This document shows positions 43,482-64,000 of a stretch of DNA of 64,000 nt, piece after piece. Location of the stretch: positions 1 to 64,000 of the forward strand of contig CAVYRH010000003.1 of NCBI GenBank assembly GCA_963770835.1. The letters run 5' to 3'. The DNA is from an uncultured Pseudomonadota bacterium (GTDB lineage Bacteria > Oederibacteriota > Muellerivitia > Muellerivitales > Muellerivitaceae). Position numbers and translations under genes: made by a program. Every line of letters begins with the position of its first letter. Within the stretch, counting starts at the first letter, position 1. The notes under the pieces are model-generated. The model had not been told where the DNA came from. It ran no database searches and saw only the letters and a list, made by a program, of their open reading frames with translations.

Positions 43482-43612
43482 ACAAAGAATTGTAAAAAAG
43501 GTCATTTCAAAGGGTGCCCGCAACTCTCATGCCTCTTAAATTTGTATTTTGAGGTAATCTTTATTGGTCTCACGTCCTTAGGAACGTTAGTATTTCGAGA
43601 ATTATTGATTGG

Positions 43613-45292: not shown

Positions 45293-45299
45293 TTTTGGC

Positions 45300-45327
45300 T
45301 GTCCGCGACGGGGACCCATCGTGGACA
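45300..45327 (+). repeat. 28-bp 11-6-11 site (IS target)
   Basis: TGTCCGCGACG-GGGACC-CATCGTGGACA. Confidence 0.9.
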
Positions 45328-45395
45328 GGTAACATGATGGCCATTCCACCGCCGGGATTAAACTATTCCCGGTGAGTAGCCACTCATAAGGAGGA

Positions 45396-46472: not shown

Positions 46473-46660
46473 AGAGGTTTCAGCCTCAGTTTCGTGATTC
46501 GACCCCTTAGGAATGACCACGAGTTTTAGCTGTGCCTTAGGCACGTTGGACAGGTGGTGGCTTCCCTCAGGATTATCGAATTCTTATCTTGTGCCTCGAG
46601 CACGAATAGCAGCGTGAATCCACGAAACCAAAAGGCTGACCGTAGGAGAAAATTGGACTT
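46473..46660 (+). ncRNA. Putative bridge/seek RNA of IS element 2
   Basis: Two repeated GTGC-N5-GCAC hairpins, each flanked by segments matching the target (TGGACAG) or donor junction (ATAGCAG). Confidence 0.7.
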
Positions 46661-46748
46661 GAGGAATGGCCTCATAGCAGGAATGGCCTCATAGCAGGTA
46701 AAATTGGCTCAGCTGGGGGTTGGTCAACATGACCTGGGGGGATAAAAA

Positions 46749-47144
46749 ATGGAAGATTTGAAAGAAATCGCCCAAACGATATGCCGGTACCCCCTCATAT
46801 CGGACAAATCGATTCAAGATTATTTAAAAGAATCCGGATTTATGGACCACCGGAAGAACATTTGTGTTGAAGACTTCAAAGAATATTTAGAAGGCCACAA
46901 GGATTTAATAGATAAATGGATTGGGTGGTCAGACAAACGAACGGATTTTGGGTGGACATTCAGCAGTTGGGGGCAGGATGGATATTATCGGATCACTGGA
47001 TATGGCATCAAAGATCCCAAACCGAATCTGGGCCATGAATTAACATTTAAAAGTTCAATTGATGCGGTTGCGACCTATATCAGTCTCGAAATGAATGCTT
47101 GGGCTCAGTTTAACGAAAATAAGCAACCCGGAAAATGGTGGTAA
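46749..47144 (+). CDS. Hypothetical protein (131 aa)
   Basis: G-rich RBS; ORF ends 22 bp before a 28-bp site. Confidence 0.68.
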   Translation: MEDLKEIAQTICRYPLISDKSIQDYLKESGFMDHRKNICVEDFKEYLEGHKDLIDKWIGWSDKRTDFGWTFSSWGQDGYYRITGYGIKDPKPNLGHELTFKSSIDAVATYISLEMNAWAQFNENKQPGKWW

Positions 47145-47166
47145 CGGATTTTTGATAGTTCATGGT

Positions 47167-47194
47167 TGTCCGCGACGGGGACCCTTCGTGAACA
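47167..47194 (+). repeat. 28-bp 11-6-11 site preceding cas1
   Basis: TGTCCGCGACG-GGGACC-CTTCGTGAACA. Confidence 0.85.
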
Positions 47195-47268: not shown

Positions 47269-48279
47269 ATGGACTTGCTTATTGATACTTACGGTACCAA
47301 GATCGGCGTAAATGGCGAGCGCATCGTCCTTTCTTTTCCGAAAGTTAAAGAGAAAAAAGAATACCCCATCCATAGACTGGAGAAAATAGTCATACTGCGG
47401 CCGGCCTCGCTCACGACTCACGCGGTTCAGCTCGCGATTGAGCACGATGTTGATATCGTCTATCTCGGTTCTTTTGGCAAGCCCATCGGAAGACTATTTT
47501 CAAGCGAACCAAAAGGGCTGGCGAGTCTTCGTAAAGCGCAACTGGAAGCGTCAACTTCGCTTGAGCGATCGTTCAAAATCGCGAAAGAATTAGTGCGGGG
47601 CAAATGCGCTAATCAGCTCGATCTACTCCGATATCTCGCGTACCGATATAAAAAGGATGTGGGGACCGAACTCTTACAAGCGCAGACCCTTTTTGATGTC
47701 TTGGACAATGTCCCGTGTTCGGAGAAAGGCAAGGAGCAACTCCTTGGTACGGAAGGATACATCGCGGACAAATATTTCAGCGGGTTAAAAAAATTCTATA
47801 GATTCCCGGGCCGAAAACCACAAGGCAGGGACCAGTTTAACAGCGTACTGAATTATGGTTAGGGCATCCTTTACAATGAAGTCGAACGGGCATGCCTTTA
47901 CGTCGGTCTTGATCCATATCTCGGCCTCTACCACAGTGAACGCTATGGTAAGCCTGCCCTCGTTCTCGATCTTGTCGAAGAATTCCGCGTACCAATCGTC
48001 GACTCGGTGCTTTTCCCGCTTTTCATAGAAAAGAAACTGAGCCAACGGAAATATTTTGAAAAAACCGCGGTTGGGCAATATCTGTTATCGCCTGAGGGAA
48101 AAAGCGTCGTGGTGGGGGCGATCATGAGGCGGTTGAATGAAACGACGGCATGGCGGGGGAAACAATATACTCTTAAGCAGATCATAGATAACCAGATTAG
48201 GGCGTTGGCACGTCACTTTGTCGAAAAGGAGGACAAGTACAACCCGTTTCGTGCGGAAAAACTTTTTTCGATATCATGA
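47269..48279 (+). pseudogene. cas1: CRISPR-associated integrase Cas1 with a premature TAG at 47860-47862
   Basis: LLGTEG, DQFNSVLNYG(Y)GILY, GLDPYLGLYH, LVLDLVEEFR; the second copy has TAC at the same codon. Confidence 0.92.
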
Positions 48280-48611
48280 ACAATTTCAATGCCATCACCC
48301 TAGTATCGTGGGAAACGCGCGACTGGCGGCATCGGGACAAGGCGGTTCTGTGGTGCAAGAATTATGGTCTCAAGCCGGTTTTCCGGAATATGTATATCGG
48401 AAAATTGTATTCAAAAGAACGGGAAAAACTCGAGAATAAATTCAAGGGGGCTTTCGCAAAGAAGACCGAAAAGTTTTTTATCAGTACGCTCTGTCGGTCG
48501 TGCTTTGAAGATTCGGTTTTCGGTGGTACGCTTAGTTCTAAGAAAGATGATGTCGACATTGAAACTGCGTTTGAACTTATCCAAATCACGCCGAATTCGG
48601 CGGAACGGTGA
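48276..48611 (+). CDS. cas2: Divergent Cas2-like protein
   Basis: Overlaps the cas1 stop (ATGA); Cas2-like pattern LVSWET, CKNYGLKPV, YIGKL, LCRSCF; canonical YDI replaced by WET. Confidence 0.72.
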   Translation: MNNFNAITLVSWETRDWRHRDKAVLWCKNYGLKPVFRNMYIGKLYSKEREKLENKFKGAFAKKTEKFFISTLCRSCFEDSVFGGTLSSKKDDVDIETAFELIQITPNSAER

Positions 48612-48633
48612 AAAACACCAATAATTGCAGGCT

Positions 48634-48670
48634 CCTGCACATGCCTGTCGCAAAAAGGATAGTGTGCAAC
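48634..48670 (+). CRISPR. CRISPR-like repeat 1 (37 bp)
   Basis: CCTGCACATGCCTGTCGCAAAAAGGATAGTGTGCAAC, 22 bp after cas2; TGCACA/TGTGCA terminal stem; three identical copies. Confidence 0.72.
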
Positions 48671-48815
48671 TAAGAGACTACCGAGATCGAAGGACGACTC
48701 TTAAAATTTTTGCGGGCAACTTACTTATGTAACAGAATCAGTCCTTGCCAGGGCCTTTCGCAAGAAACGAGTCCCCCAAACCCTGATTTTGAGAAATTTT
48801 CTTAAAAGAACTTAA

Positions 48816-49643
48816 ATGAAAACCAGAGAGAATATACAATTACAACCATTTTTAAAATGGGCTGGCGGTAAACGTTGGCTGGTTTCTAAATACTCAAAAA
48901 TATTTTTAAAACCGTTTAATACTTATTTTGAACCATTCCTGGGTAGTGGGGCGGTGTTTTTCCACTTAAAACCAAAAAAATCAGTTCTTTCAGATGTTAA
49001 TAAAGACTTAATCGATACGTTTCGTGCGATAAGGAATAATTGGAAAGGTGTTGTAAGTGAATTGAAGAAGCATAATTCGAAACATTCCACAAATTACTAT
49101 TACAAAATGAGAGATTGGAAGCCCAATTCCGCCAATAAAAAAGCTGCACTTTTTATTTATTTAAATCGCACTTGTTGGAATGCTTTGTATAGGGTTAATA
49201 AAGAGGGGAAGTTTAATGTCCCTATTGGAACGAAATTAAATGTTTTACTTGAAACGGATGATTTTGAAGCAGTTTCTAATGCCCTAAAAAATGTAACATT
49301 CAAAGACGGAGATTTTGAACATATTTTAGATACGGCAAAAAAAGGGGATTTCATTTACCTTGATCCGCCTTATACGGTTACACATTCAAATAACGGATTT
49401 ATTAAGTACAATAATCATATTTTCAAATGGGAAGATCAATGCCGACTAGCAAGTGTTTCAAAAGATTTGATAAACCGCGGCTGTGCAGTTGTTATAAGCA
49501 ATGCTTATCACAACAGTATCTTTGATTTATATAAAGGGTTTTACTATTTGGGTTTGAAACGCCACAGCCTTTTAGCCGCCGATCCAAGGAAAAGAGGAGA
49601 TTATAAAGAGTGCCTTTTTTCGTCTTTCCCAATCAAAATTTGA
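48816..49643 (+). CDS. Dam-family DNA adenine methyltransferase
   Basis: FLKWAGGK, EPFLGSGAV, FIYLDPPY. Confidence 0.93.
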   Translation: MKTRENIQLQPFLKWAGGKRWLVSKYSKIFLKPFNTYFEPFLGSGAVFFHLKPKKSVLSDVNKDLIDTFRAIRNNWKGVVSELKKHNSKHSTNYYYKMRDWKPNSANKKAALFIYLNRTCWNALYRVNKEGKFNVPIGTKLNVLLETDDFEAVSNALKNVTFKDGDFEHILDTAKKGDFIYLDPPYTVTHSNNGFIKYNNHIFKWEDQCRLASVSKDLINRGCAVVISNAYHNSIFDLYKGFYYLGLKRHSLLAADPRKRGDYKECLFSSFPIKI

Positions 49644-49655
49644 CGGGAGTTTACA

Positions 49656-50630
49656 ATGGCCGATGAAAATGTTTTTGGTGGATTCCTTTTACAAGAAAAA
49701 CCCCCAATTTATTTAGCTGCAATACCAGGAAAATGGTTGTTAAAACACACAACTCCTTCTTGGCGATTAGAAAATCCAGAAGAAGGTTTTCAAAGAGTTG
49801 TCCAAGAAAAAAGGGCTAGAGAAATAGCGACTGCTGTTTTAAATCAAAAACGAATATTTCCAAACGCAATTGTTTTAGCTACGGATATTCAAAATTTCGA
49901 GGCACGAAAAGGCGAGATAAGCATTGGAAATAGGATTAAATTTCTTGTTGTTGATGGGCAACATAGGTTGTGGGCTCAAAAATTTTCAGAATTTGAGGCT
50001 ATATATGCTTGCACCATTCATTGTGGCCTTGATGAAGTAAAAATGGCGGAATTATTTATCGAGATTAACAACAACCAGAAACGGGTTCCGTCTTCTCTTC
50101 GCTGGGATCTTGTTAGATTGGTTAGGCCGGATGAGGATCCATTTGGAATTGAAGCATCTGAACTTGTTTTTGAATTGGCGACAAATGAATCGAGCCCCTT
50201 ATATCAAAGGATTGATTTAACGGGAGAACAAAACGAAATCAGTTTGAAACAAGGTTCTATTGCTCCTGAATTCAAACATATTTTTTCTTTAAGAGATTCC
50301 CCATTCAAAGATTTAAATTTTGAAGTGGTTGTTGACAGCATCATTAAGTATTTGGCTGCAATTAAATCAATGGATGCTGATGGTTGGAAAAAAGGGAAAT
50401 CTGCTTTTTACCAGGCTAGGGTATTAAGGGTTTTAATAAAAATATTACCTGAGATCATTAAAAAAGAAGGAGTCGATGTTTCGAAAATAACAGCAATTTC
50501 CTATAAAAACCACTTGGAAAAAATTAAAGAGAATAAAATCACAAGAGAAGCTTTGACGGCTCAACATGGGAATTCGGGCATTAAAGCTATTTATGATGAG
50601 ATACATTCTCAAATATTTGGTAGAAGTTAA
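49656..50630 (+). CDS. DGQHR-domain protein (DndB/ParB-like)
   Basis: FQR, FPNAIVL, VVDGQHR, FIEINNNQK. Confidence 0.88.
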   Translation: MADENVFGGFLLQEKPPIYLAAIPGKWLLKHTTPSWRLENPEEGFQRVVQEKRAREIATAVLNQKRIFPNAIVLATDIQNFEARKGEISIGNRIKFLVVDGQHRLWAQKFSEFEAIYACTIHCGLDEVKMAELFIEINNNQKRVPSSLRWDLVRLVRPDEDPFGIEASELVFELATNESSPLYQRIDLTGEQNEISLKQGSIAPEFKHIFSLRDSPFKDLNFEVVVDSIIKYLAAIKSMDADGWKKGKSAFYQARVLRVLIKILPEIIKKEGVDVSKITAISYKNHLEKIKENKITREALTAQHGNSGIKAIYDEIHSQIFGRS

Positions 50631-51499
50631 TGAATTTATTTGATTTTTCTCAAGCGCAATATTTTTGTGGCAGTCATGTTTCGGCTTTGAGAAATCGGTC
50701 CGTTGGGCTGCGGAACTTCTTTGTGGCTCGGCCTAGAACCTTAAATTTATTAAGAGAGGGGACGCCTGAATATAATGAGTTTCGGGATGGTCTTTTGTGT
50801 GATATCGAAAGAAATTTATTTTTATCAATCTCACTTTATAGAAGATCTTTAGATTTAATGATGACCAGCTCGGCTAGTTGGGCTTTTGTTACCCTTTATT
50901 ACAGTTCGTTTCATGCAGCGTCAGCAATTATGGGGTTGTTCGGGGGAGTCTCAAAGGTTCCTGAATATATTGTCGATGTCGTTAGAGGAAACTCTGGGCG
51001 GCAAGAGCTGCGAATAATTAGAAATCTTGGTAATAATCAAAGGATATTAAGAAATTTTTCTGCATACAATGGTCCGCACAGAGTTTTTTGGGACATATTT
51101 TACCCATCAAGCGCTGGATTAACTGCATGGATTCCTGATCAAAGTTTACATATTGCATTGACCCCGGTTAGTAATGATCGGTTATGGCAAATTAACAATA
51201 GAAATGATTTGAATTATAACTCCCTTGATTCATTGGAGGTTTGCAAAAGTTTTGAGAATAACTTTAATTCCACAAATTTCCCCAGTTCCCTTCCTGGCGT
51301 TTTAAGTACCCAATTTTCAATAACTGAAGCAATGATTCTTACGGCTGTCTTTTTTTCTAAAGAATTTAATTTGGGAACCGACTCCTTGAAAAACCTTAAT
51401 CCTGCTGGCGCGAGAGAAACGAAATTGCGGAATTTAATCCGGGATGGTGTATTGCCTGATTTGGCACAGAAATCTAAAATCGCAGAAATGATATCTTGA
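50630..51499 (+). CDS. Hypothetical protein with HEPN-like motifs
   Basis: WAFVTLYYSSFHAASAI and RNDLNY. Confidence 0.55.
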   Translation: MNLFDFSQAQYFCGSHVSALRNRSVGLRNFFVARPRTLNLLREGTPEYNEFRDGLLCDIERNLFLSISLYRRSLDLMMTSSASWAFVTLYYSSFHAASAIMGLFGGVSKVPEYIVDVVRGNSGRQELRIIRNLGNNQRILRNFSAYNGPHRVFWDIFYPSSAGLTAWIPDQSLHIALTPVSNDRLWQINNRNDLNYNSLDSLEVCKSFENNFNSTNFPSSLPGVLSTQFSITEAMILTAVFFSKEFNLGTDSLKNLNPAGARETKLRNLIRDGVLPDLAQKSKIAEMIS

Positions 51500-51580
51500 A
51501 TTCTTAAAATTGGCTTCTAATTATTTAAGCCCATAATTATTTTAAATGATAAATGGTAATTTTTTCAAAAGGGGCAACCG

Positions 51581-52282
51581 ATGTGTGTCTCCTACCAACT
51601 AAACCTCCCCATTAAAGACATCGCCAAGACCTTTAAAGCGAAGCCCCCCAAGAAGATTCTCTGGGACCCCTCCAAATTAGAAAGAATCCGGCCTTCCCAC
51701 TTGGTCCCCATCATCATGGTCGACCCCGCAACAGGGGAGAGGGTCATCAAGGAAATGATTTGGGGAATGCCCTTTTTCGACTTCCTGAAAAAGAAGCTGG
51801 TCAGGCACCACCTTTTCAACGCAAAGGCCGAAACCATCACCGAAAAGAAAACCTTTAAGACCAACTTCCAAAAAAACCGCATCCTGGTCCCCATCAACCC
51901 GGCCTTCATCGAATGGAAAGACGTCGGCGGAAAGAAAAAACAACCCTACCTTATCGGCTTAAAACCCAAGGCCCCCTTCGCCTTTGCCGGCATTTGGGGG
52001 AAGTGGAACCTCACAGTTGAGGACGATAAGACGCTTGAAGCGAAGTTTAATGTGAACCCGAAATATGACCCTCCAAAGAAGGACTTTGAGTTTTACACCG
52101 TCATCACGACCACACCAAATGAGCTTATGGCCGACATTCACAACCGAATGCCTGTCATTCTGGACCCCAAGAACTACGACGCCTGGCTGGACCCTAATAT
52201 CCCGGACGCGGGGATCCTCAAAGGCCTATTAAAGCCCTACCCGGCCGCCAAGATGCAAGCCAAAGCCGCGGAGAAAGTTTAA
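51581..52282 (+). CDS. SOS response-associated peptidase (SRAP/YedK family)
   Basis: N-terminal Cys2, FNAKAET, FIEWK, AFAGIW, IHNRMPVIL. Confidence 0.92.
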   Translation: MCVSYQLNLPIKDIAKTFKAKPPKKILWDPSKLERIRPSHLVPIIMVDPATGERVIKEMIWGMPFFDFLKKKLVRHHLFNAKAETITEKKTFKTNFQKNRILVPINPAFIEWKDVGGKKKQPYLIGLKPKAPFAFAGIWGKWNLTVEDDKTLEAKFNVNPKYDPPKKDFEFYTVITTTPNELMADIHNRMPVILDPKNYDAWLDPNIPDAGILKGLLKPYPAAKMQAKAAEKV

Positions 52283-52755
52283 TGAAAAAACCGGAAACCT
52301 TACCCACAAGGCAAATAGGTAAACTCGGGGAACTTCTAGTCCAATACAAGTTACTCCAATATGGCATCGAATCCGCTCCTTTAACCACGGACGCAGGAAT
52401 AGACTTGGTGGCTTACGGCCCCAAAATCAAAAGGGCAATTACAATCCAGGTAAAAACAAACTTGAAGCCAAAGCCGGGGGGAGGAAAAGGAAAGCCCGCA
52501 ATAAATTGGTGGGTGGATGACGATAACCCGGCCCAAATTTACGCCTTTGTAGATATTTCCACCGAAAAAGTCTGGATATTTTCCAAAAAAGAATTCGAAA
52601 AGGTAGCCCAACAGCATTCGAGCGGCCGGCGGCAACTATATATGACCCTTTCTTCCGAATCAGAATTGAAAGGAAAAATTGGAAAGGCGGCTCAAATATT
52701 AAAATTTAACGACTACTTGTTAGTAAATCGAATAAGCACCTTAATAGGAAAATAA
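52282..52755 (+). CDS. PD-(D/E)XK nuclease-family protein
   Basis: GKLGE, GIDLVA, IQVKT. Confidence 0.7.
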   Translation: MKKPETLPTRQIGKLGELLVQYKLLQYGIESAPLTTDAGIDLVAYGPKIKRAITIQVKTNLKPKPGGGKGKPAINWWVDDDNPAQIYAFVDISTEKVWIFSKKEFEKVAQQHSSGRRQLYMTLSSESELKGKIGKAAQILKFNDYLLVNRISTLIGK

Positions 52756-52757
52756 AA

Positions 52758-53309
52758 ATGGACTCCTTCGAAAACGTCATCACAAGTCTCTTGGAGCGGG
52801 AAGGCTTCTGGACCCGTACATCCGTCAAGGTTGAATTAACAGATGTAGAAAAGAAGAAAATCGGATGGAAAACCAATCCCCGTCCGGAATTTGACATTGT
52901 GGCTTACAAAGGGAAAACGAATGAATTATGGCTCGTCGAATGCAAATCCTATCTCAACTCCGGGGGTGTAAATTATAGAGCCTTCAATGGAACGAACCCC
53001 GGTTTCGCCAAAAGATTTAAATTATTTAACAAACAAAAAAAATATAGGCTTGTAAGAAAGATTTTATTAGAAAAGTTGGTTGAGGCGGGTTTTTGCCGTC
53101 CAAACCCCAAGGTTAGCCTTGTATTAGTAGCGGGTAATGTCGTTGAAAGTCATCGTGAAAAATTAAAGTCGCATTTTGATAAAAAAGGCTGGATTTTGTG
53201 GGATGAAAAAGAATGGCACCCCAAGCTTAAGAAACTAGCCGGAGAAGGTTATGAAAACTCCATCGTTTCTGTAGTCAGTAAAATGCTTTTGCGAAGAACT
53301 GATAAATAG
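52758..53309 (+). CDS. PD-(D/E)XK restriction-endonuclease-like protein
   Basis: FE, EFDIVAY, LVECKS. Confidence 0.72.
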   Translation: MDSFENVITSLLEREGFWTRTSVKVELTDVEKKKIGWKTNPRPEFDIVAYKGKTNELWLVECKSYLNSGGVNYRAFNGTNPGFAKRFKLFNKQKKYRLVRKILLEKLVEAGFCRPNPKVSLVLVAGNVVESHREKLKSHFDKKGWILWDEKEWHPKLKKLAGEGYENSIVSVVSKMLLRRTDK

Positions 53310-53490
53310 ACAGGAGTTTTCTTTGCCCAAACCCTTCCTCAAATCCGACTTCCCTCCGCCTCGAATCAATTTTAACCAAACAAAATACATCCCTTTTCCT
53401 TCCTGCCCGGTTTTCACCCACCCCTGTTTAGTTTAACGACAAGGCGCTATTTCATTTACAACCTAACCCTCCGGGCGGACACTGATGTTG

Positions 53491-53584
53491 TTCGGTGTGG
53501 CAAGACCCAAAGGCCTACCACATTGGACCCCCGCGAAACGCGGATCTCCCCGGCATAGCGAGATCCCACCTCACCTAGGAGGTG
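53491..53584 (+). ncRNA. Putative structured 5' leader RNA, copy 1
   Basis: About 93-nt repeat with four hairpins, the last covering the Shine-Dalgarno; paralog at 54353. Confidence 0.55.
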
Positions 53585-53590
53585 TCCGTC

Positions 53591-54325
53591 ATGTCTAAAA
53601 GTCCCATTTATAATTATGTTCCAGCCTGGTTCACCCAACGAACCGTTGAAATTTACAAACCCATGCCACCTTATGGCAGCCCCAAGGTGGTACGCACTCA
53701 GGTAGTTCCGGAAGACGCACCCGATTTCGCCTGTCATTACTGCCTGGAACCCTTACCCCTGATTCAATTTGAATCCGCCGACGAGTACCGCGTTTGCCCC
53801 ATTTGCCGGCACCGGGTATTGGATGCTTTTCTTCAAACCCCGGTTCACCTTTTAACCCGGGCCCAACAGGTGGAAATGTTCATAGGGGAACTTATTTTCA
53901 TCAAACAATGGAGATCGGTATTGGATTTGAGTTTGGAATTCTTCGAGCATGCTTCCTACGAAAACGAAAACGAGAAAGCCGATTTTAAGGAAGCCTGGGA
54001 CTTTATCGTTTCCCAAAAAGAAGTTGTTCTCGCCATGAATGGGCGGGTGGAAGTGGACTTCTGCATGGTTTTTTTGGATTACAAAAAACCGAAAAGCAAT
54101 TTAAAGGTTTATCTCTATAAACCTCGGGATTTCTGGTTTGACGCCCATGTGCAGAGCCGTTTGGGGTGCAGGCCCATTGAAGTGAACGGGTTTCAACTGC
54201 GCCTGGTAACCGCCACCAATTGGGCCGCCTACGGCTACCCCCGCTGTGAACAAATGGCCGTGATCGGGCTTTTGAAATGCCGCGGCCAATTGGCGTGGGA
54301 CGAAGTCTACGGCAAAAAAGCCTAA
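53591..54325 (+). CDS. Hypothetical zinc-ribbon protein
   Basis: CHYC...CPIC; paralog of 55271-55990 (shared TPV...TRAQQ, GFQL). Confidence 0.7.
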   Translation: MSKSPIYNYVPAWFTQRTVEIYKPMPPYGSPKVVRTQVVPEDAPDFACHYCLEPLPLIQFESADEYRVCPICRHRVLDAFLQTPVHLLTRAQQVEMFIGELIFIKQWRSVLDLSLEFFEHASYENENEKADFKEAWDFIVSQKEVVLAMNGRVEVDFCMVFLDYKKPKSNLKVYLYKPRDFWFDAHVQSRLGCRPIEVNGFQLRLVTATNWAAYGYPRCEQMAVIGLLKCRGQLAWDEVYGKKA

Positions 54326-54352
54326 GAAGCCGAACATAAAAAGTTGGTTTGA

Positions 54353-54445
54353 TTCGGTGGGGCAAGACCCAAAGGCCTACCCCATTGACCCCCGCGAAAC
54401 GCGGATCTCCCCGGAATAGCGAGATCCCACCTCCTGAAAGAGGTG
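54353..54445 (+). ncRNA. Putative structured 5' leader RNA, copy 2
   Basis: Near-identical to 53491-53584 with a compensatory base-pair change. Confidence 0.55.
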
Positions 54446-54449
54446 AAAC

Positions 54450-55274
54450 ATGGAAAAATTATTCGGCGTTGTATTCTATTTAATTGGTGTCGTTCAATTT
54501 ATCGCGGTGGATATGGGGGCGGCCGGAAGTATCTTAGAAAACGAGGGGTGGCATTGGATTTACTTACCCATTCGGTTGGCCTCTTTCGTAATGATGCTTT
54601 GCTTAAACTGGTACATTTTTATTTGGGCTCCAGGACAATTTTACCTGGTTCAAGAAACCGTAGTCCCGCCTAAAAATTCTCCGCCTCTTCATCCAACGCC
54701 TGTCGTTCCCGTCGACCCAAAGCGAGAACTATTCAAACAACCCACTCTTAAACCAGAGGCAGTTCATTACCCAATAAGGAAAACAGTTGTACTCAAACCC
54801 CGAGGGGATTCCGCTTCCTATGAAGTTCCCGCCGCCAAGACACCACTAACGCCTGATGAAAAGAAGTTTGCCGCGATGGTATCGCGGTTGAAAGAATTAG
54901 ATAAAGAAGGCGTAAGTATTGACGAGAAGGCTGAAGAAATACGGCGTTTGGGGGGCGAATTAAAGCGGGTAAATGACAAAAACGGGAATGAGATATGGCC
55001 ATTGAGCGAGACCCAATGGGAAAGGGAAATAGCGGAAAGACTTAAGGGTATCCATTGCCCCAATTGCCGAGGGATAGATATTGGCATGATCCTTTACGGC
55101 CAGTTGCCTAGAGGGGATGGTCGGTTAAACCATCTGATTCGCATGAAGTTATTTATACCGGGCGGCGGCCTCTCGGGCCTCGAGAATCTTTACTGTAATG
55201 ACTGCGAGAGCTATTGGGTAAGTGATAAATATTTAAGTGAGACCCCTCCTCCAGCGAGAGGCGGTGAAAAATGA
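54450..55274 (+). CDS. Hypothetical membrane protein with C-terminal zinc ribbon
   Basis: Two N-terminal TM segments; CPNC...ILYG...CNDC. Confidence 0.65.
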   Translation: MEKLFGVVFYLIGVVQFIAVDMGAAGSILENEGWHWIYLPIRLASFVMMLCLNWYIFIWAPGQFYLVQETVVPPKNSPPLHPTPVVPVDPKRELFKQPTLKPEAVHYPIRKTVVLKPRGDSASYEVPAAKTPLTPDEKKFAAMVSRLKELDKEGVSIDEKAEEIRRLGGELKRVNDKNGNEIWPLSETQWEREIAERLKGIHCPNCRGIDIGMILYGQLPRGDGRLNHLIRMKLFIPGGGLSGLENLYCNDCESYWVSDKYLSETPPPARGGEK

Positions 55275-55990
55275 ATGACTTTCGTTCTTCTATTTTAGAT
55301 CCTCCCAGCAGTACGATTAACCACCCCCCAAAAACGGAACGGCCCTTGCGCCATAAGCGCCACCGGGACAAGCGGAAAAGATGCCCCTATTGCTTATGGG
55401 ATTTGACCGACTACGACCCGGAAGAAATTAAGGAACGGGGTAATCTATGCCCCCTTTGCCGCCACGGCATCCTGGAAAATCTTTTGTCCACCCCTGTCTA
55501 TGAATTTACCCGGGCCCAACAGTGGGATCTTTTGGCCAATGAAATGGAATATATCTGGGATGCGGAGCACCTTGACGTGGAAACCTACATCTTCGCAATG
55601 GGAAGTTATTACAACCCGGACTACGGCGAGGCCAAGGAAAGGTTGTGCGGCATGTTGGTGGAAAAGGAAGCGGTGTTGAGGCTGGAAGAGGAATTTATCG
55701 AGGCCGAGGGGGAATTGGACCTTCTTATCATCGCTTACTTGAATAAGTTGGCCGCGTGGAGGGGGGACATGGCCAGGCGGCTTTTCGTGGGGCGGCAATG
55801 GCGGCTTTCGGCCCGGCGGCTGAGCATGACCCATTTCAGTGAAAGGGAAGCGGTCGGGTTCCAACTGGGTTTCATACAGTCCTGTCCCTGGGGGGCCTTC
55901 GGGAGCCTGGACAAAAAGGAAAAGACCGTGGTCTATCTCGAGAAAATATTGGAGAAGCTTACTTGGGACCAGGGAAATATGGGGGCGTGA
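55271..55990 (+). CDS. Hypothetical zinc-ribbon protein
   Basis: CPYC...CPLC; overlaps the upstream stop; paralog of 53591-54325. Confidence 0.7.
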   Translation: MNDFRSSILDPPSSTINHPPKTERPLRHKRHRDKRKRCPYCLWDLTDYDPEEIKERGNLCPLCRHGILENLLSTPVYEFTRAQQWDLLANEMEYIWDAEHLDVETYIFAMGSYYNPDYGEAKERLCGMLVEKEAVLRLEEEFIEAEGELDLLIIAYLNKLAAWRGDMARRLFVGRQWRLSARRLSMTHFSEREAVGFQLGFIQSCPWGAFGSLDKKEKTVVYLEKILEKLTWDQGNMGA

Positions 55991-56360
55991 AATACAATCA
56001 GTAAAAAAGTGGGTCCAGCCCGAAATACCCCTGTAAAATATCCCATGCCCAAACCCTACAATAAATCCGACTTTACACCCGCCGTCAAAGATCCCAAAAC
56101 CGGCCAGGTTTGGACCGGTGAAGACCATAAGGAAGCGATAAATAAAGCCCACAACGAGGGAAATAAGAGTGTTTATTTTGAAAACACCGGCTTTCTTCAT
56201 AAGGACGGCATCTTTTTCACCCGTTCCCAAACCGAAAGGCAATGGGGCTTCAAAACCAGCGCCGATCTGCGCTGAAAACGTTTTTCCACCCCTCAAAATC
56301 CTCTTACCACTTTCCTCGTTTTTGTTCATAATACCGGCCATTCCAACTGGAGGTATTTGG

Positions 56361-57092
56361 ATGCGTAAATATTTGTCTTTCGTCCTCGTTTTTTTCGCCC
56401 TGGTATTCCTGAAAAACAACAACGCCTTCGCCGACGACTCGACCGCCAAAACAGCCCCTGGCGACGACAATGGCAAATTCTACGGCCAGCTCGTCGATTC
56501 CGGGGTGGAGGTCCGCAAGTGCATCCTCCAATATTTCGTGGACTACAAGAAATACCTTGTTGAAGGCAAGGAAAACAGGCCGGTTTCGTACGGGAAAAAG
56601 TTCCCGTGGAAATACTGGCCAGCCTATAAAAAAATGGACGCCGCCATCACCAGGATTGCCGGCAACAAGGAATATCCCGACTATTTCCTCACCTATGGGG
56701 CCAAAATCTTCCGCAAGCTCGAGGAGCCGGAGGTGAAGGCCTTTTATGGAACCCAATGGTCAAAAGAGGTGGAGGACGCCGTTCTTTCCCATTTCGAGCA
56801 GGACAGCCTTTCGGATTACAGCCTGGACGATTTCGACGCCAAGAAGGACGCCGGGCTCACTGAAACCCCGCTCCCCCTGCCCAAGGCCCAACCCCTCAAA
56901 CCCCTTGTCCTATATGACTCCTCGACCGACCCGGAGACCATGAAGGCACGGGCCACCCTGGGAATTTCCAACCCCCCGGACACCTCCGACGGCCAAGAGA
57001 ATGTACCGGCCCAACCGACCGCCACACCTAAACCCAAGGACGTGATCGGGGATGCTGCCGGCGATGCGGCCAAAAAAGTCTTTGGCTTTTGA
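56361..57092 (+). CDS. Secreted hypothetical protein
   Basis: GGAGG RBS before ATG 56361; signal peptide ending AFA. Confidence 0.7.
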   Translation: MRKYLSFVLVFFALVFLKNNNAFADDSTAKTAPGDDNGKFYGQLVDSGVEVRKCILQYFVDYKKYLVEGKENRPVSYGKKFPWKYWPAYKKMDAAITRIAGNKEYPDYFLTYGAKIFRKLEEPEVKAFYGTQWSKEVEDAVLSHFEQDSLSDYSLDDFDAKKDAGLTETPLPLPKAQPLKPLVLYDSSTDPETMKARATLGISNPPDTSDGQENVPAQPTATPKPKDVIGDAAGDAAKKVFGF

Positions 57093-57334
57093 TGAAAGAC
57101 CTCCCCTTCTGGCGCGGTGCCATCCACAACGCAAAGACGGTCCTCGTCCTGAAATCCGTCGGGGAAGACCTGGCCACCTTCAAGAACCAGGCCGACTTTA
57201 TCGGCGACAAGCCCAAGCTGAACGAGGCCCAGCTGGAAACCCTCCGTCTGGAATATTCCCTGAAAATGAAGAAGTTGACCGCCGAAGCCATGCCTCCACG
57301 GCCGCCCGGGAAGCCGAAATTTAAAAATGAGTGA
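57089..57334 (+). CDS. Hypothetical protein (81 aa)
   Basis: Translationally coupled to the upstream ORF. Confidence 0.55.
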   Translation: MMKDLPFWRGAIHNAKTVLVLKSVGEDLATFKNQADFIGDKPKLNEAQLETLRLEYSLKMKKLTAEAMPPRPPGKPKFKNE

Positions 57335-57383
57335 TTTTAAGAACCAGGATTTAAGGTAAAAAATAATATCAAAGGAGTCATTT

Positions 57384-58094
57384 ATGAAAATAATTCTTTA
57401 CCTTTGTTTGGTTTTTAGTGGTGCTTCACTTTTATTCGCAAAAGGGGCAATGGACACCATTAAATCAAACACGGTTGAAACGGCTCAAGACGATCCAAAC
57501 AAAGCAGAATCCGATTACCAAAGATACATTAAGGACAAAGCCGGGGATCTTATAATCGAAAAAGATAAATTCGAGAATCGAACAGTTATCAAAACCAATT
57601 TTGGTAGGGGTTGGGCGAATCGCAATGAATTAGAATTCTTTAAGCACAAAGGTGAAGATGGCTTTGACTTAGCTGGGGTTGAATTAAAAATAGAAGCTTC
57701 AATATTCGACAGTAAAAAGAACTCGGATCAATATGTTCTTTTGTTCAAAACAACTAATCCAGACACACCTTTTGGTGATAAAAAAATCGATGAAAAAAAC
57801 TTCAAATTCATGGACTGTAATGATTTTCATTGGCTGGTCGATGGAGCACCATTATCGTTTGTAAGTGAGAAATATTCTAATCATGTGGGGAAGGACTTAG
57901 TGGATACCATTGAAACTTTTACGGTTGTTTTAAACAAAAAACAATTTGAAAAGCTGGCTGTTGCATCAACCGTTGAATGCAAAATATGCGATACCCAATT
58001 TGTCTTTAACAAGAAGCACTTTTGGGTTTTGCGTTGGGTTATGGAGAGGGCTAAGGAATTACGGGCCACGAAGGAAACTAATACAAAAAATTGA
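57384..58094 (+). CDS. Secreted hypothetical protein, AT-rich
   Basis: AAGGAG RBS and signal peptide. Confidence 0.7.
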   Translation: MKIILYLCLVFSGASLLFAKGAMDTIKSNTVETAQDDPNKAESDYQRYIKDKAGDLIIEKDKFENRTVIKTNFGRGWANRNELEFFKHKGEDGFDLAGVELKIEASIFDSKKNSDQYVLLFKTTNPDTPFGDKKIDEKNFKFMDCNDFHWLVDGAPLSFVSEKYSNHVGKDLVDTIETFTVVLNKKQFEKLAVASTVECKICDTQFVFNKKHFWVLRWVMERAKELRATKETNTKN

Positions 58095-58218
58095 TCTAAA
58101 TTCCCTGAAAATTCGAGCTTTTCAAATTTGCCAAATCCCCAAAACTTGACCGATTCTCCCAGGAGGGCGTATATCTAAGGTATACCGATGTATACCTTTT
58201 CCCCTTTTTGGAGGTTTT

Positions 58219-58659
58219 ATGGCCACTCTCTACTTTTTGGGCCCGGCCCAGGAGATATTCAGGGACCTTTCCTTGCCCCTTATAGAACCTCCCGTGCCTG
58301 CAGGGGCTCCGGGCCCCCCGGAGGAATACAAAGAAAAGCGGATCGACCTGAACCGGCTTTTCAACTTCAACGCGTCCACTTTCACCTGGCTTGCCCAGGG
58401 CGATTCCATGATCGGCGCGGGGATCCACACGGGGGACATCCTGATCGTCGACCGGGCCCTCCAAGCGGCCCTGGGGGATATCGTCATAGCGGAAATCAAC
58501 CGGCAGCCCACGGTCAAGCGCCTTGGAAAAAACAACAACGCCCCGGCCCTGCTCCCCGAAAACGTGAACCACAAACCCATCCCCATCGACGAGGTCGAGG
58601 GCATCCGGGTTTGGGGGGTGGTTACGGGGGTCTTTCATCGCTTCAAGACCTATCGGTGA
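58219..58659 (+). CDS. umuD: UmuD-like S24 peptidase (Pol V accessory subunit)
   Basis: VPAG cleavage site, GDSMIGAGI, TVKRL, VWGVVT; upstream of umuC. Confidence 0.88.
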   Translation: MATLYFLGPAQEIFRDLSLPLIEPPVPAGAPGPPEEYKEKRIDLNRLFNFNASTFTWLAQGDSMIGAGIHTGDILIVDRALQAALGDIVIAEINRQPTVKRLGKNNNAPALLPENVNHKPIPIDEVEGIRVWGVVTGVFHRFKTYR

Positions 58660-58829
58660 GTGTTTTTAAAAATATCTTTCACGCTACAGCCCCGGATTTC
58701 GACGATGAACTCCCCGACCCGTACTCGGATACCCCCTCTTTGGAGGCTTTCATGCCCCGCAACTCGAAAGGAATTTTATGACGCGCGGGGCGATACCATT
58801 TTCAATAAACGGTTTATAGGAGAAATGGG

Positions 58830-60101
58830 ATGGACAAAATCTTCGCCTTGGTCGACTGCAACAACTTCTACGTTTCCTGCGAAAGGGTCTTTGATTTCAC
58901 CCTCCGCGACCGCCCTGTAGTGGTTCTTTCCAACAACGACGGCCTGGTAATTGCCCGTTCCAACGAGGCGAAGGCGCTCGGTTTCAAAATGGGCGACGCC
59001 GTTTTCCAGATGCAGGAAGCCATCAAGGAGAACCAAGTCGTCGTAATGTCCTCCAACTACGCTCTCTACTTCGACATGCGCGACCGCGTCCGGGAGGTGC
59101 TTTCCAATTTCACCCCCCGTTTGGAAAAATACAGCATCGACGAATGTTTCCTCGACTTCACCGGGATTCCGAAGGACGAGTTAGAAGATTACGGCCGCAG
59201 GATAAAAGCAAAGGTTGAAAAGTGGACCGGGATTCCTGTTTCGGTCGGAATCGGATCGACAAAGTGTCTCTCGAAACTCGCCAATAAGCTTGCGAAGAAA
59301 TCCGAGAAGGCCCGAGGGGTGCTGGACATCTACAAATCCCCGCACCTGGACAAAGCTTTGGAAGCAACGGACGTTGGCGACCTTTGGGGTGTGGGCCAGG
59401 CCTATGAAGGGATGCTTAAATCCAACGGCATCAACAACGCCCAGCAGTTCCGGGACGCACCGGAGCATTGGGTCCGATCCAGGATGACCGTCGTCGGAGC
59501 CCGGATTCAATCTGAGCTAAAAGGGGTGTCATGTATTGCTCTTAAAGAAATCCCTGATCCTCAACAAATGGTCGGCACCGCCCAGGGATTCGGTGTCCCC
59601 ATCGAAACGATTGAGGAACTAAGGGAGGCGGCCGCCACCTATGCCAACAAGGAAGCCGTCAAACTTCGCCAGCAAAAACAATGCGTCAAGGAGCTGGTTG
59701 TTTGGGTCCAAACCAACCCTTTCGGGAGGGACCCCCAATACGGAAACAAGGCCGAGATCGTTTTTCCCGTGGCCACGAATGACCCCTCGCTCATCATAAA
59801 GAAAGTGGTAAACGCCGTGGAAATGCTTTATAAAAAAGGATATCGGTACAAACGAATCGGGCTCAACGCGACCAAGCTGGAACTGGAGGATTGCGTCCAG
59901 GAGCACCTTTTCGTGAAGCCAGAGGACACCAAACGGCAGAATCTTTTACGGGTGGTGGACCAATTGAACGAGGTCAGCGGAGCCGGCACGGTCCGGACCG
60001 CCTCCGTTGTGATCGACGCCCGTTGGATGACCCGTTTCTCGAAACAGTCACCCCACTACACCACTAAAGTTAGCGATATTCCAATTGCCCGGGTGGGGTA
60101 G
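58830..60101 (+). CDS. umuC: Y-family DNA polymerase UmuC
   Basis: [37 protein letters not shown]. Confidence 0.94.
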
Positions 60102-60135
60102 GAAAAACCAGAGAACACAAAGATCCACACCCAAC

Positions 60136-60504
60136 TTATGGTTTTGATTTTGGAAAATAGGTCGTGGCCTCGCCCGCCACTTGCCCATTTACGACCACAT
60201 AAACCTTCACGTTCTTTTTGGCTTTCGGAAATGGAACTTCGATTGATTTTGCCTTTTCCGAGACAATTTGGCCGCAGGGTCCATCCTTGTGCGTAAATTC
60301 AAAGGTCAGGTATTCGGTATCTGGATCTTCGACCTTACCGGGTGGAATGCCGACCTTGAGTTCTCCCGGGACATAACAAGTATCCAATGTGGTAACCGTC
60401 ACATGAATGCCATAAATATCGCCATGTAGCCAGGCCATCCCAATTTTTGCCCCCAGATGAAACACCATATCGTTTGGCATAATCCAAATCCTTTCCGATC
60501 CCAA
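60136..60504 (-). CDS. Hypothetical protein
   Basis: 122-aa ORF convergent on umuC; start uncertain. Confidence 0.5.
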   Translation of the reverse strand: MGSERIWIMPNDMVFHLGAKIGMAWLHGDIYGIHVTVTTLDTCYVPGELKVGIPPGKVEDPDTEYLTFEFTHKDGPCGQIVSEKAKSIEVPFPKAKKNVKVYVVVNGQVAGEATTYFPKSKP

Positions 60505-60720
60505 TATTTGAGTTGTTTCTTTTCATATTTCTTTCCGGGAAACAATCCCAAGTAATTTATCATTTTAAAACTGGTGGATAACTAAAAAAGCCAACCTCTT
60601 CAGGAACTGGGCGTCGTTATTTTAATGATAAACTTTCAATTATTTTTCGTAATAGCGTTTTTATTGTTTAAAAAGTGTCTTTTATTATTTTGGTAAAAAT
60701 TATTTTGACCCCCTTAAATT

Positions 60721-60757
60721 CCTGCACATGCCTGTCGCAAAAAGGATAGTGTGCAAC
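60721..60757 (+). CRISPR. CRISPR-like repeat 2
   Basis: Exact copy of the 37-mer, joined directly to mid-cas1 sequence. Confidence 0.72.
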
Positions 60758-61484
60758 AACTTCGCTTGAGCGATCGTTCAAAATCGCGAAAGAATTAGTG
60801 CGGGGCAAATGCGCTAATCAGCTCGATCTACTCCGATATCTCGCGTACCGATATAAAAAGGATGTGGGGACCGAACTCTTACAAGCGCAGACCCTTTTTG
60901 ATGTCTTGGACAATGTCCCGTGTTCGGAGAAAGGCAAGGAGCAACTCCTTGGTACGGAAGGATACATCGCGGACAAATATTTCAGCGGGTTAAAAAAATT
61001 CTATAGATTCCCGGGCCGAAAACCACAAGGCAGGGACCAGTTTAACAGCGTACTGAATTATGGTTACGGCATCCTTTACAATGAAGTCGAACGGGCATGC
61101 CTTTACGTCGGTCTTGATCCATATCTCGGCCTCTACCACAGTGAACGCTATGGTAAGCCTGCCCTCGTTCTCGATCTTGTCGAAGAATTCCGCGTACCAA
61201 TCGTCGACTCGGTGCTTTTCCCGCTTTTCATAGAAAAGAAACTGAGCCAACGGAAATATTTTGAAAAAACCGCGGTTGGGCAATATCTGTTATCGCCTGA
61301 GGGAAAAAGCGTCGTGGTGGGGGCGATCATGAGGCGGTTGAATGAAACGACGGCATGGCGGGGGAAACAATATACTCTTAAGCAGATCATAGATAACCAG
61401 ATTAGGGCGTTGGCACGTCACTTTGTCGAAAAGGAGGACAAGTACAACCCGTTTCGTGCGGAAAAACTTTTTTCGATATCATGA
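60758..61484 (+). pseudogene. cas1: 5'-truncated duplicate of cas1 without the nonsense codon
   Basis: Matches 47553-48279 except TAC versus TAG; lacks the first ~95 codons. Confidence 0.9.
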
Positions 61485-61816
61485 ACAATTTCAATGCCAT
61501 CACCCTAGTATCGTGGGAAACGCGCGACTGGCGGCATCGGGACAAGGCGGTTCTGTGGTGCAAGAATTATGGTCTCAAGCCGGTTTTCCGGAATATGTAT
61601 ATCGGAAAATTGTATTCAAAAGAACGGGAAAAACTCGAGAATAAATTCAAGGGGGCTTTCGCAAAGAAGACCGAAAAGTTTTTTATCAGTACGCTCTGTC
61701 GGTCGTGCTTTGAAGATTCGGTTTTCGGTGGTACGCTTAGTTCTAAGAAAGATGATGTCGACATTGAAACTGCGTTTGAACTTATCCAAATCACGCCGAA
61801 TTCGGCGGAACGGTGA
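61481..61816 (+). CDS. cas2: Duplicate Cas2-like gene
   Basis: Identical translation to 48276-48611. Confidence 0.72.
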   Translation: MNNFNAITLVSWETRDWRHRDKAVLWCKNYGLKPVFRNMYIGKLYSKEREKLENKFKGAFAKKTEKFFISTLCRSCFEDSVFGGTLSSKKDDVDIETAFELIQITPNSAER

Positions 61817-61838
61817 AAAACACCAATAATTGCAGGCT

Positions 61839-61875
61839 CCTGCACATGCCTGTCGCAAAAAGGATAGTGTGCAAC
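61839..61875 (+). CRISPR. CRISPR-like repeat 3
   Basis: Exact copy of the 37-mer. Confidence 0.72.
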
Positions 61876-62962
61876 ACTCACGGCCTTAAATTTGGGTGGG
61901 CCGGTGACGAACTTAAATCAACTTTCAGGTGCAGCCACGGTCTCGGGCAAGACTTATGTGTGGTGTGGGAACAGGATTTGTGAGGAAAGAGACGCAACAG
62001 GCAAACAGGTACTCAAAAGGTTCTTTTCCAACGGCGAGCAAGACAATGGACAAAACCTGTACTATACAAAGGACCATCTGGGAAGTGTTCGTGAGGTGAT
62101 GGATGCTTCCGGAAACATCCAAGGTCAGTTTGATTATGATCCGTGGGGCAGGCAGACCCAAATAGCCGGAACTATGCAGCCTTCGTTTGGCTACACTGGT
62201 CATTTTCAGGAACCGACGACAGGGTTACTGCTTTCCAAATATCGTGTCTATAACGCGGATATGGGAAGGTGGACATCGGGAGACCCAAAAGGGCAGGTCG
62301 CGGGAGCAAACATTTATTCTTATGTAAGGAACAATCCTCTAAACACAAGAGACACATTAGGCCTTTATGATTCGAATTCCTTTATAGATAACTGGTTGTA
62401 TAACCCTGATTCTGTATCTGATTTTATCGATCCTGACTATTTTGATTGGTTTACTCCGCAAGTAGCCAATACAGCTGAAAGAGTTGCCCAAGGGGCTGCG
62501 ATTGTAGGTGGTACCGTTGGCGGTATTTCCACACTTGCAGGGGCCGGAACATTGCTCTACTGCGGTTATGATGTTTTAGCTTCCGGGTCTTCTGCTTACA
62601 CTTCATTCGCAATTGGCAATGTACTTACTGGCGCTGCCCAGACGGGTTTGGGTCTGTTCGGGGGAGCACAAATCATAAATCAAGGTTATCAATTCTTCAC
62701 CAATCCAAATCCTGCATACAGTGAAGGTCAACCACTTTTCCAACAAAATGCTTTAACGACCGCATTGGATCTCGCAGGTGGCTTTGTAGGAAGTTCGACG
62801 ATGGATTTATTAAATGGAGCTGCGAGCGCGACCTCAGATTATTCTGACATGGATCAGCAACAGGAGTCAGGGGACCCGACTAATCAAGCAACGGATACTG
62901 CCCCAGCTTCAACCGATAACTGGTATTGGCAAGAAATTGATTTAAATCCAGATGGGACATGA
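61876..62962 (+). pseudogene. N-terminally truncated RHS-core protein with variable C-terminal tip
   Basis: DHLGSVR, YDPWG, FGYTG, YRVYNADMGRWTSGDP, NIYSYVRNNPL, DTLGL; frame open from the repeat junction, no ATG or RBS. Confidence 0.82.
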
Positions 62963-62969
62963 CTTTTAG

Positions 62970-63526
62970 ATAAACCCTGCCAGCTAACCCCAGGCTTCAG
63001 CCTGGGGGCGAATGGCAGCCCGGAGGGCCGACTGAGTTTGTCGGCCCGAAGGCAAGGAACTGTGGAATGCTCTGGTCATGGGAAAATATTGGTCAGGCGC
63101 ACATACCAGACACCGACTGCAATATCACCTCGTTTGGATACCCAAGTATCGGAAACGAGTCTTGCTTGGCAAAGTTGCCGTCCGCCTGCAAGAGCTGTTT
63201 AGAGAGGCGGCCCACGTCAACCGTTGGGTAATCCACGAATTGAATATTCAGCGAGACCACGTGCATATGCTGATCCAGGTTGAGCCAAAGGTGAGTGTGG
63301 CTAAAGTGGTGCAGGTGCTAAAAGGCGGTACAAGCACCAAGATCAGGCGTGAGTACCCTGAACTTGAGGAGTTTCTCTGGGGGGATAGTTTTTGGGCGGA
63401 CGGCTACTTTGCGGAAAGTATAGGCACTGTGCAGGAGGAGATGATCCGCAAATATATCCGCGAGCAACAGCATGACCAGAGTATGCCGAAAGGTAGAAAC
63501 CCCGGGCTTTAGCCCGGGGAGATTCA
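62970..63526 (+). mobile_element. IS200-group element (tnpA only); ends approximate
   Basis: Terminal hairpins CCCCAGGCTTCAGCCTGGGG (62988-63007) and CCCCGGGCTTTAGCCCGGGG (63500-63519). Confidence 0.85.
63078..63512 (+). CDS. tnpA: IS200/IS605 HUH (Y1) transposase
   Basis: YHLVWIPKYR, DHVH, LKGGTS, FWADGYF, IRKYIREQ. Confidence 0.95.
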   Translation: MGKYWSGAHTRHRLQYHLVWIPKYRKRVLLGKVAVRLQELFREAAHVNRWVIHELNIQRDHVHMLIQVEPKVSVAKVVQVLKGGTSTKIRREYPELEEFLWGDSFWADGYFAESIGTVQEEMIRKYIREQQHDQSMPKGRNPGL

Positions 63527-63614
63527 TTAGCAAATAAACTAACTTTCTTGAATCGAACCTTTTTGGGGGATAATTACCAAACAAGTTTCTTGTCCAATAA
63601 TTTTGGGAGTGAAA

Positions 63615-63896
63615 ATGGCCGATAAGAAAAGAATTATTGTGAATGTTTTTTTTGTGCTGACAGTACTATTGGCGGGAATTGCAGCTCTCTTTTTATTTTT
63701 TTTAATGCCGGTAATACATTCTAAGTTTGCAATTTTCCATGAATATGGATTTTTGTGGCCTCTTTTTTACATTCTTTTTATTGTTTTATACTTTTTTGTT
63801 TTTTTTAAGTTGATCATTTGGTTATTAATCAAGTTTGTATATATGAAAATTATTGCTTGGATTGACAGAACAGACCCCCAAAGAAAAATCCCTTGA
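63615..63896 (+). CDS. Small two-TM membrane protein, possible RHS immunity protein
   Basis: AT-rich, hydrophobic, downstream of the RHS tip; start approximate. Confidence 0.5.
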   Translation: MADKKRIIVNVFFVLTVLLAGIAALFLFFLMPVIHSKFAIFHEYGFLWPLFYILFIVLYFFVFFKLIIWLLIKFVYMKIIAWIDRTDPQRKIP

Positions 63897-64000
63897 GGGT
63901 TCGAGGTTCAAAAACGCTTTTCCAGAGGAAGTTAATTGAATAACACTTTTAAAATACTGGGATTCTTTTTTCTTTCTACGGCCCTGTTCTTTATTCAGAA

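Follow-up and report, generated by a model that had tools for sequence, protein, structure and literature searches.

Kilobase-sized, gene-bearing inserts lie between the repeats of a CRISPR-like array that follows a cas1-cas2 pair in an uncultured soil bacterium that probably belongs to FCPU426. The array begins in a 64,000-bp stretch of DNA (positions 1 to 64,000 of contig CAVYRH010000003.1, assembly GCA_963770835.1), referred to here as the window. It most probably belongs to a CRISPR adaptation module that has lost Cas4 and its effector and sets no limit on insert length, with Cas1-Cas2 capturing DNA by two ends. Three identical 37-bp repeats with a terminal TGCA...TGCA stem are present on the forward strand at 48634-48670, 60721-60757 and 61839-61875, separated by 12,050 and 1,081 bp. 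An earlier note, made from the sequence of the window alone, had reported these positions and intervals, and we found them again exactly, along with the 22 bp between the cas2 stop codon and repeat 1 that form a minimal leader (48612-48633, forward strand).

The earlier note had also proposed a search for the 37-mer beyond the window. In the source genome (G000; 4.58 Mb, 26 contigs, 96% complete), a scan allowing 11 mismatches found 27 copies in four groups, none of them with between 6 and 11 mismatches, and a reversed-pattern control gave no matches in 99 genomes. Array A comprises 11 repeats from C3:48634 to 101992, beyond the window end, with intervals of 1,081-12,145 bp (C3 is the contig whose start is the window). 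Array B has nine repeats at C3:383301-400905 without a cas gene, and its last repeat is inverted; the remaining copies are located on C15 (four) and C16 (three). Identical repeats, fully duplicated on either side of unique inserts, are what CRISPR adaptation leaves. Relatives have long intervals as well, since the 67 intervals measured in FCPU426 range from 30 to 26,097 bp with a median of 1,798 bp, and 57 of them are at least 500 bp long. A crude k-mer scan of G000 for an ordinary CRISPR array returned only a threonine-rich coding repeat.

The window copy of cas1 (47269-48279, forward strand, 336 codons) is broken by a TAG at 47860-47862, and is followed by a divergent cas2 encoding 111 residues (48276-48611, forward strand). 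The pair is present three times in G000, with the same leader and repeat after each copy. Both genes are intact in the C15 and C16 copies, the TAG being private to the window, and contigs of all four sequencing runs compared read an intact codon at the matching place in a duplicate described below; the TAG is either a real mutation or a consensus error. Cas1 scored 250.9 bits against the general Cas1 model TIGR00287 (cut-off 71.7) and passed no subtype model. Its metal-binding triad (E172/H232/E247) is invariant in 26 of 26 aligned homologues, so that the intact copies supply the genome with the Cas1 expected of CRISPR adaptation.

The window Cas2 was not recognised by Pfam or NCBIfam. PADLOC matched the small open reading frame (ORF) to Cas2b (E 2e-7), a profile of 43 sequences retrieved 12 PDB sequences, most labelled Cas2 (best E 0.0013), and the top Foldseek matches of the predicted structure (predicted local distance difference test, pLDDT, 79.7) are Cas2 structures. 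A protein with the Cas2 fold therefore adjoins Cas1. Its catalytic YD motif is changed to WE, and across the clade both the YD and the RVQKS motifs of six outgroup Cas2 proteins are replaced. The CxxC motif was considered as a clade innovation and ruled out, as it is kept in 42 of 43 clade Cas2 proteins but also occurs in all six outgroup proteins read. A model of the Cas1-Cas2 complex scored 0.67, with the best of three controls at 0.01, and places the contact on the C-terminal strand of Cas2; its runs share at least 86% of contacts with a partner pLDDT of at least 81. This mark, reached by 116 of 157 solved pairs and 2 of 215 mismatched pairs, is roughly applicable here, and as Cas1-Cas2 is a textbook pair the model may pass by likeness. 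The model supports binding of the two proteins through the predicted Cas2 strand.

Insert A1 (48671-60720; 12,050 bp, 45% GC) carries genes for a Dam-type methyltransferase (48816), a DGQHR/DndB-like protein (49656), SRAP (51581), UmuD (58219) and UmuC (58830), as well as ORFs without an assigned function. The earlier note saw no integrase of its own in this segment, and the scan of 16 ORFs against Pfam likewise found no integrase or transposase. The segment might also have been a known integrative element; the only matches were umuC fragments in 67 plasmids and none in phages, with about 7.8 of the 12 kb covered per search. Two copies of an 82-bp direct repeat (95%) at 53491-53584 and 54353-54445 flank one ORF of 247 residues. 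A 6.6-kb contig of the same genome (C6) resembles the right half of A1, umuDC included, at 65-77% similarity, and on this basis it appears related to the element that gave rise to A1.

Insert A2 (60758-61838, forward strand; 1,081 bp) holds the 3' part of cas1, cas2 and a leader copy, and ends exactly at the leader-repeat junction. It is 99.9% identical to 47553-48633 and 100% identical to the C15 copy, with TAC where the window cas1 has TAG. Because its end coincides with the leader-side nick position, A2 may have arisen as a side product of the reaction, or from a join at one end only. The 1,081-bp interval is self DNA, which qualifies the proposal that the intervals store large DNA fragments. 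Insert A3 (61876-64000 within the window, forward strand; 2,460 bp, ending outside it at C3:64335) contains an RHS gene cut at its 5' end (to 62962) and an IS200 tnpA (63078-63512). The cut in RHS had been noticed earlier, and its uncut allele is inside an RHS ORF of 934 residues at C3:100262.

In order to characterise the insert ends, we compared 211 repeat flanks from G000 and from stretches of six relatives, and counted as an uncut allele any match of at least 93% identity over 35 bp. Uncut alleles were found for 27 flanks, and 13 further flanks matched only other cas2 leaders. The cuts fall in the middle of genes, including cas1, RHS, an IS3 insertion sequence (IS), spoIID and cassette genes. 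Microhomology between source and repeat edge was 0 nt in 20 cases, 1 nt in five and 2 nt in two, a mean of 0.33 nt compared to 0.36 nt at random positions. No base bias or motif was detected at the six positions outside the 27 cuts, where CRISPR-Cas systems would show a protospacer-adjacent motif (PAM). For three inserts, both ends map to a single uninterrupted source: a 559-bp insert in G027 (G000:C17:6972-7530), the 885-bp insert B7 of array B, found inside a G004 insert, and a 379-bp insert in G023 found inside G027:C8. B7 (G000:C3:399838-400722, L005) is the inverted inner part of that 971-bp G004:C4 insert (L165:8850-9820) and is shorter by exactly 43 bp at each end, a single case.

Insert ends are rich in A/T at positions 2-7. 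In the first set, the A/T fraction was 0.76 versus 0.55 for 54 left flanks and 0.66 versus 0.57 for 64 right flanks, and in a hold-out it was 0.65 versus 0.56 (35 left flanks, p=0.004) and 0.70 versus 0.54 (40 right flanks, p=1e-4). This bias may reflect fraying of the ends by Cas1. Taken together, the mid-gene cuts, lack of a PAM, chance-level microhomology, whole-source inserts and A/T-rich ends fit two-ended capture by Cas1-Cas2.

The same layout is found across a clade of Cas1 proteins. Of 134 loci fetched, 67 encode a Cas1 that is at least 38% identical and extends to the C-terminus; 10 of these ended too soon, which leaves 57 scorable. A well-scoring 37-mer directly follows cas2 in 44 of the 57 (the matrix was seeded on 16 of them, which is partly circular), and additional copies in 17 of these 44 loci delimit 39 intervals, which measure 140-7,672 bp. 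Spacers of a near-constant 20-50 bp, as in CRISPR-Cas, are not a feature of these arrays, with intervals of 50 bp or less accounting for two of the 67 in FCPU426 and none of the 39 in the clade loci. The two, of 30 and 38 bp and both in G023, are of ordinary size and qualify the earlier note's picture of kilobase intervals. More distant Cas1 proteins are associated with ordinary arrays with a period of about 73 bp. In a quick tree of 114 Cas1 sequences, 21 long-interval and 26 short-interval rows lie on opposite sides of one branch (Shimodaira-Hasegawa-like approximate likelihood ratio 98, no bootstrap, midpoint root), the long-interval set including L029, whose 10 kb contain a single repeat, and L052 and L086, which are identical to each other and have an inverted pair. 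By this tree, the long-interval layout marks one Cas1 clade in Patescibacteria and FCPU426, with the FCPU426 sequences nested among those of Patescibacteria.

Cas1 proteins of FCPU426-labelled relatives are 96-100% identical to that of G000, so that G000 probably belongs to this lineage. The repeat family occurs in 7 of 99 genomes of the phylum, all within one family. Four of 60 relatives, from three other genera, have a Cas1 97-100% identical, and three genomes of the same genus gave no match to this query, which suggests recent horizontal spread. No relative was found in viral_contigs in a search for viral carriers, no insert series was common to two genomes, and the runs containing the system included no RNA run. 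In G023:C12 (L179), eight repeats are separated by 30 to 3,422 bp; this query found no close Cas1 in G023 (90% complete).

Effectors were absent wherever we looked. Searches of G000 for RAMP, the Cas12f/TnpB finger, Cas3 HD, Cas4 and HNH_4 were empty, the Cas9-, Cas12a- and Cas13-specific families not being among those searched. The flanks of 28 clade loci contain no Cas effector among 100 ORFs (86 upstream ORFs of 26 loci and 14 of L058/L059), with one generic RecD-like helicase in L102. Within these families and ORFs there is therefore neither an effector nor a CRISPR RNA-processing gene. These results bear out the description of the cas1-cas2 pair as effector-less. Relatives with effectors and short spacers would have spoken against the earlier note's idea that Cas1-Cas2 serves as an integrase that stores large DNA fragments, and the Cas1 tree and homologues showed the opposite; the idea is supported by the clade layout, the effector-free relatives and the uncut alleles free of att sites.

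We propose that Cas1-Cas2 would bind two free DNA ends and fray a few bases at each. The two 3' ends would be joined to opposite edges of the 37-bp repeat, and fill-in would duplicate it. Both ends may be of one long molecule that loops out, which would allow inserts from about 30 bp to more than 10 kb with no PAM. Any linear DNA at hand could serve as substrate, such as that from breaks near the array and IS elements, pieces of other arrays, or DNA of related bacteria. As there is no effector, self DNA would be non-lethal and inserts would persist with their genes.

The sources of other inserts are consistent with such a range. Insert D1 (7.5 kb) duplicates the spoIID-queA-yfhO-tgt cluster that the host has on C5, at 70-74% identity and with its spoIID truncated at the repeat, which marks it as chromosomal DNA of a relative. 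Two repeats of a variant seen in G027 bound insert B3, which carries the genes for nitric-oxide reductase, hemerythrin and Crp as one complete cluster; the best interpretation of B3 is a nested fragment from the array of another cell. Insert B2 was considered as a chimera made by Cas1, and is better read as a cas1 piece already bearing an IS3 element. Among the sources, cas1, array DNA and IS elements are over-represented: 2 of 27 inserts in G000 start inside cas1, which makes up 0.07% of the genome (p ~1.5e-4, noticed post hoc), and several more overlap array or IS DNA. Ordinary adaptation in Pyrococcus is described as likewise favouring CRISPR loci and active transposons (PMC5737086). G000 has a ComEC match, which makes uptake of free DNA plausible. 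Many inserts are gene fragments, but whole operons are also retained, and the genes are conserved throughout the clade. Of 37 FCPU426 inserts with ORFs, 30 are coded on the strand of the repeat, compared with 13 of 30 in other loci. This orientation was considered as a sign of expression from the cas promoter and rejected as evidence, because host strand bias explains it: C3 itself is mostly plus-strand (160 of 196 ORFs, ~80%).

Several observations weigh against capture of each interval by Cas1-Cas2 in a single two-ended step. No well-scoring repeat was found in 13 of the 57 scorable loci, and 27 of the 44 with one have a single copy in the stretches examined. An uncut allele was lacking in the DNA examined for 184 of 211 flanks (including the 13 cas2-leader copies), and in Patescibacteria the A/T signal at insert ends is less marked (p=0.09 on the left, p=0.006 on the right). 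Many repeats are distant from any cas gene and some are solitary, and inverted terminal repeats occur at some arrays. In G004:C2 the repeat is on one side only and 58 bp of the target are lost. The G004 intervals of 24.7 and 26 kb contain backbone in common with G000:C16 as well as 28-bp sites (see below), so that long intervals need not be single captures, and these two are probably composite. Insert A9 has IS elements and an intron that are possibly later arrivals. The sequences of adjacent repeats are not always the same (B2, G027:C3), and explaining this takes nested capture or recombination. Finally, contigs from four sequencing runs did not bridge any of the window's three junctions.

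Some of these irregularities would follow if Cas1-Cas2 joined single broken ends to one repeat edge and recombination or repair built the rest, the intervals then being products of rearrangement. Solo repeats, the one-sided insertion with its 58-bp loss and the inverted terminal repeats in G000, G030 and L052 fit this; the three inserts that map whole to one source, and arrays of up to 11 co-oriented repeats, do not. We consider it unlikely as the general explanation, and one-ended joins are likely a minor route beside full-site capture. Facing pairs of inverted repeats 109-145 bp apart were observed at array ends (G000:C3:400723-400905 and G030:C170:52252-52469), and a pair in L052 is 1.4 kb apart; such pairs may mark inversions or one-ended events. 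It is very improbable that the 37-mer is instead the att site of another recombinase and the intervals integrative elements or cassettes, a condition under which the earlier note would have had to be abandoned. G000 does contain 12 tyrosine-recombinase matches, and its 28-bp sites form a separate family of about 85 copies, but none of the 12 is on C3, C15 or C16. The 27 uncut alleles show no att partner and no core common to the repeat, and such clean junctions argue against site-specific recombination. Cuts inside cas1, RHS, IS3 and spoIID genes, a repeat that tracks cas2 across the clade, and the lack, over the roughly 7.8 kb covered per search, of plasmid or phage matches to A1 beyond umuC complete a case that has largely refuted this explanation.

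The repeat could itself be a miniature mobile element inserting in resident DNA, with the intervals as host DNA between insertions, as the dispersed solo copies in G027, G014 and G030 might suggest. For the four repeats with both flanks traced (60721, 61839, C3:75250 and G030:C72:8199) the flanks were contiguous in the source in no case, and the cluster in D1 duplicates one of the host's but is foreign, so that this is the least probable of the alternatives. Misassembly around a repeat was assessed with Logan contigs of 4 of 20 listed runs, compared with 48600-64000. Beyond the unbridged junctions, it could account for interval A10 (C3:97310-98370, L004), which a local assembly error has inflated by a poly-T/poly-A run of roughly 1 kb next to an RHS gene in fragments, and for the near-exact duplicate A2, which alone could be an artefact. 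A contig of run X1 runs past the right end of A1 (60720) into non-repeat DNA. All four runs nevertheless show the repeat joined to other DNA, and the same layout with other inserts recurs in 17 other loci and six other FCPU426 genomes, making this explanation highly unlikely for the array as a whole. Two-ended capture by Cas1-Cas2 accordingly remains our preferred reading.

The cas1-cas2 unit may have been moved by a second system. A 28-bp palindromic site with an 11-6-11 structure (47167-47194, forward strand) marks the start of homology among the three cas1-cas2 copies of G000; the unit also starts at such a site in G004 and G014, and not in G027 or G030. About 85 copies are present in G000, with a median spacing of 991 bp and all 56 close neighbours co-oriented, and within the phylum 28 of 99 genomes have the site, of which 27 belong to the family of the source. 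The sites have a fixed asymmetric core and flank single genes, in the window (37685-47194) and genome-wide; A1 contains none. They look like an undescribed cassette system of dif/lox type with a putative recombinase. Group II introns and IS110 insert at these sites. Upstream of cas1, nested mobile elements fill 38283-46472, several starting at 28-bp sites. These include group II introns at 38368, 38961, 39495 and 42801 (the only Rfam matches), an intron reverse transcriptase (41603-42790) and two IS110 transposases (40298-41443 and 45396-46472). Further upstream, long threonine/proline-rich repeat genes typical of the lineage's surface proteins are located at 8940-14500.

A broader possibility is that the module has been domesticated for sequence-independent gene capture, bringing naturally taken-up DNA of any origin into a fixed site independently of homology and att sites, and that it spread from Patescibacteria to FCPU426 as a 28-bp-site cassette. 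We hold this tentatively, as somewhat short of probable. On the same tentative footing, the nitric-oxide reductase operon, restriction-modification genes and foreign alleles of housekeeping genes would be examples of its cargo. If true, this would be a route of horizontal transfer without homology or cassette signals, in lineages where gene uptake is poorly understood. It would also provide a two-protein, 450-residue integrase for arbitrary linear DNA at a 37-bp site, with uses in insertion and molecular recording. If the inserts prove to be neutral by-products, the system is merely a variant of CRISPR adaptation.

Spacer length is thought to be set by the architecture of Cas1-Cas2. In the proposal of Hickman et al., Cas2 serves to guide a single short DNA between the active sites (PMC6977970). 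In type V-A, loss of Cas4 is reported to abolish PAM selection and to shift spacers longer, with the mode staying at 29 nt (PMC9419969). Cas4-less type V-A/V-B adaptation resembles the present system in its loss of PAM selection, but a mode of 29 nt compared to a median of 1.8 kb here indicates that Cas4 loss, which would take away PAM choice and trimming, is no explanation on its own, and the missing ruler is better sought in the altered Cas2 surface. Judging from the 30- and 38-bp spacers, the old minimum span may survive, while long molecules would loop out. A natural clade integrating 30 bp to more than 10 kb would make the Cas1-Cas2 ruler directly testable.

The nearest outgroup Cas1 proteins (35-39% identity) occur in loci with Cas4 (four of four scanned) and Cas12f (three of four), and the nearest loci combine Cas4 with Cas12f (type V-F) or Cas10/Csm (III-A). 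The type V-F loci (Cas14a/b, Cas12f; cas1-cas2-cas4) L115 and L117 share the 37-nt TGCA...TGCAAC repeat, and the Cas2 CxxC is common to both groups. This supports the link to type V-F drawn in the earlier note, with the tree leaving the sister group open; the type III-A locus L123 is similarly close. The V-F outgroups keep Cas4, the effector, the YD and RVQKS motifs of Cas2 and a period of about 73 bp, whereas the clade has lost all of these and has intervals of 30 bp to more than 10 kb.

Casposons resemble the system in that they, too, rely on a Cas1-family integrase, which duplicates its target as it inserts long DNA at a preferred site (PMC6977970). As described there, they lack Cas2, encode polB, are bounded by terminal inverted repeats and duplicate 14-15 bp (PMC6977970). 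The present system duplicates 37 bp and includes Cas2, its insert ends are arbitrary, and no PolB match was found among the 16 A1 ORFs and 101 ORFs of other array regions. Integrons (IntI, attI/attC) are fixed platforms that gather gene-bearing DNA in tandem, and the likeness lies in a fixed site that accumulates such inserts. In contrast to integrons, IntI and attC are not needed, and the inserts are cut mid-gene and unrecognisable by sequence. No description of the system was found in the searched literature, which did not extend to subscription papers and preprint supplements. By their defining tests it is neither CRISPR immunity nor a casposon nor an integron; it works like CRISPR adaptation and is built from known parts, and its long-insert adaptation looks like a return towards a casposase-type ancestor.

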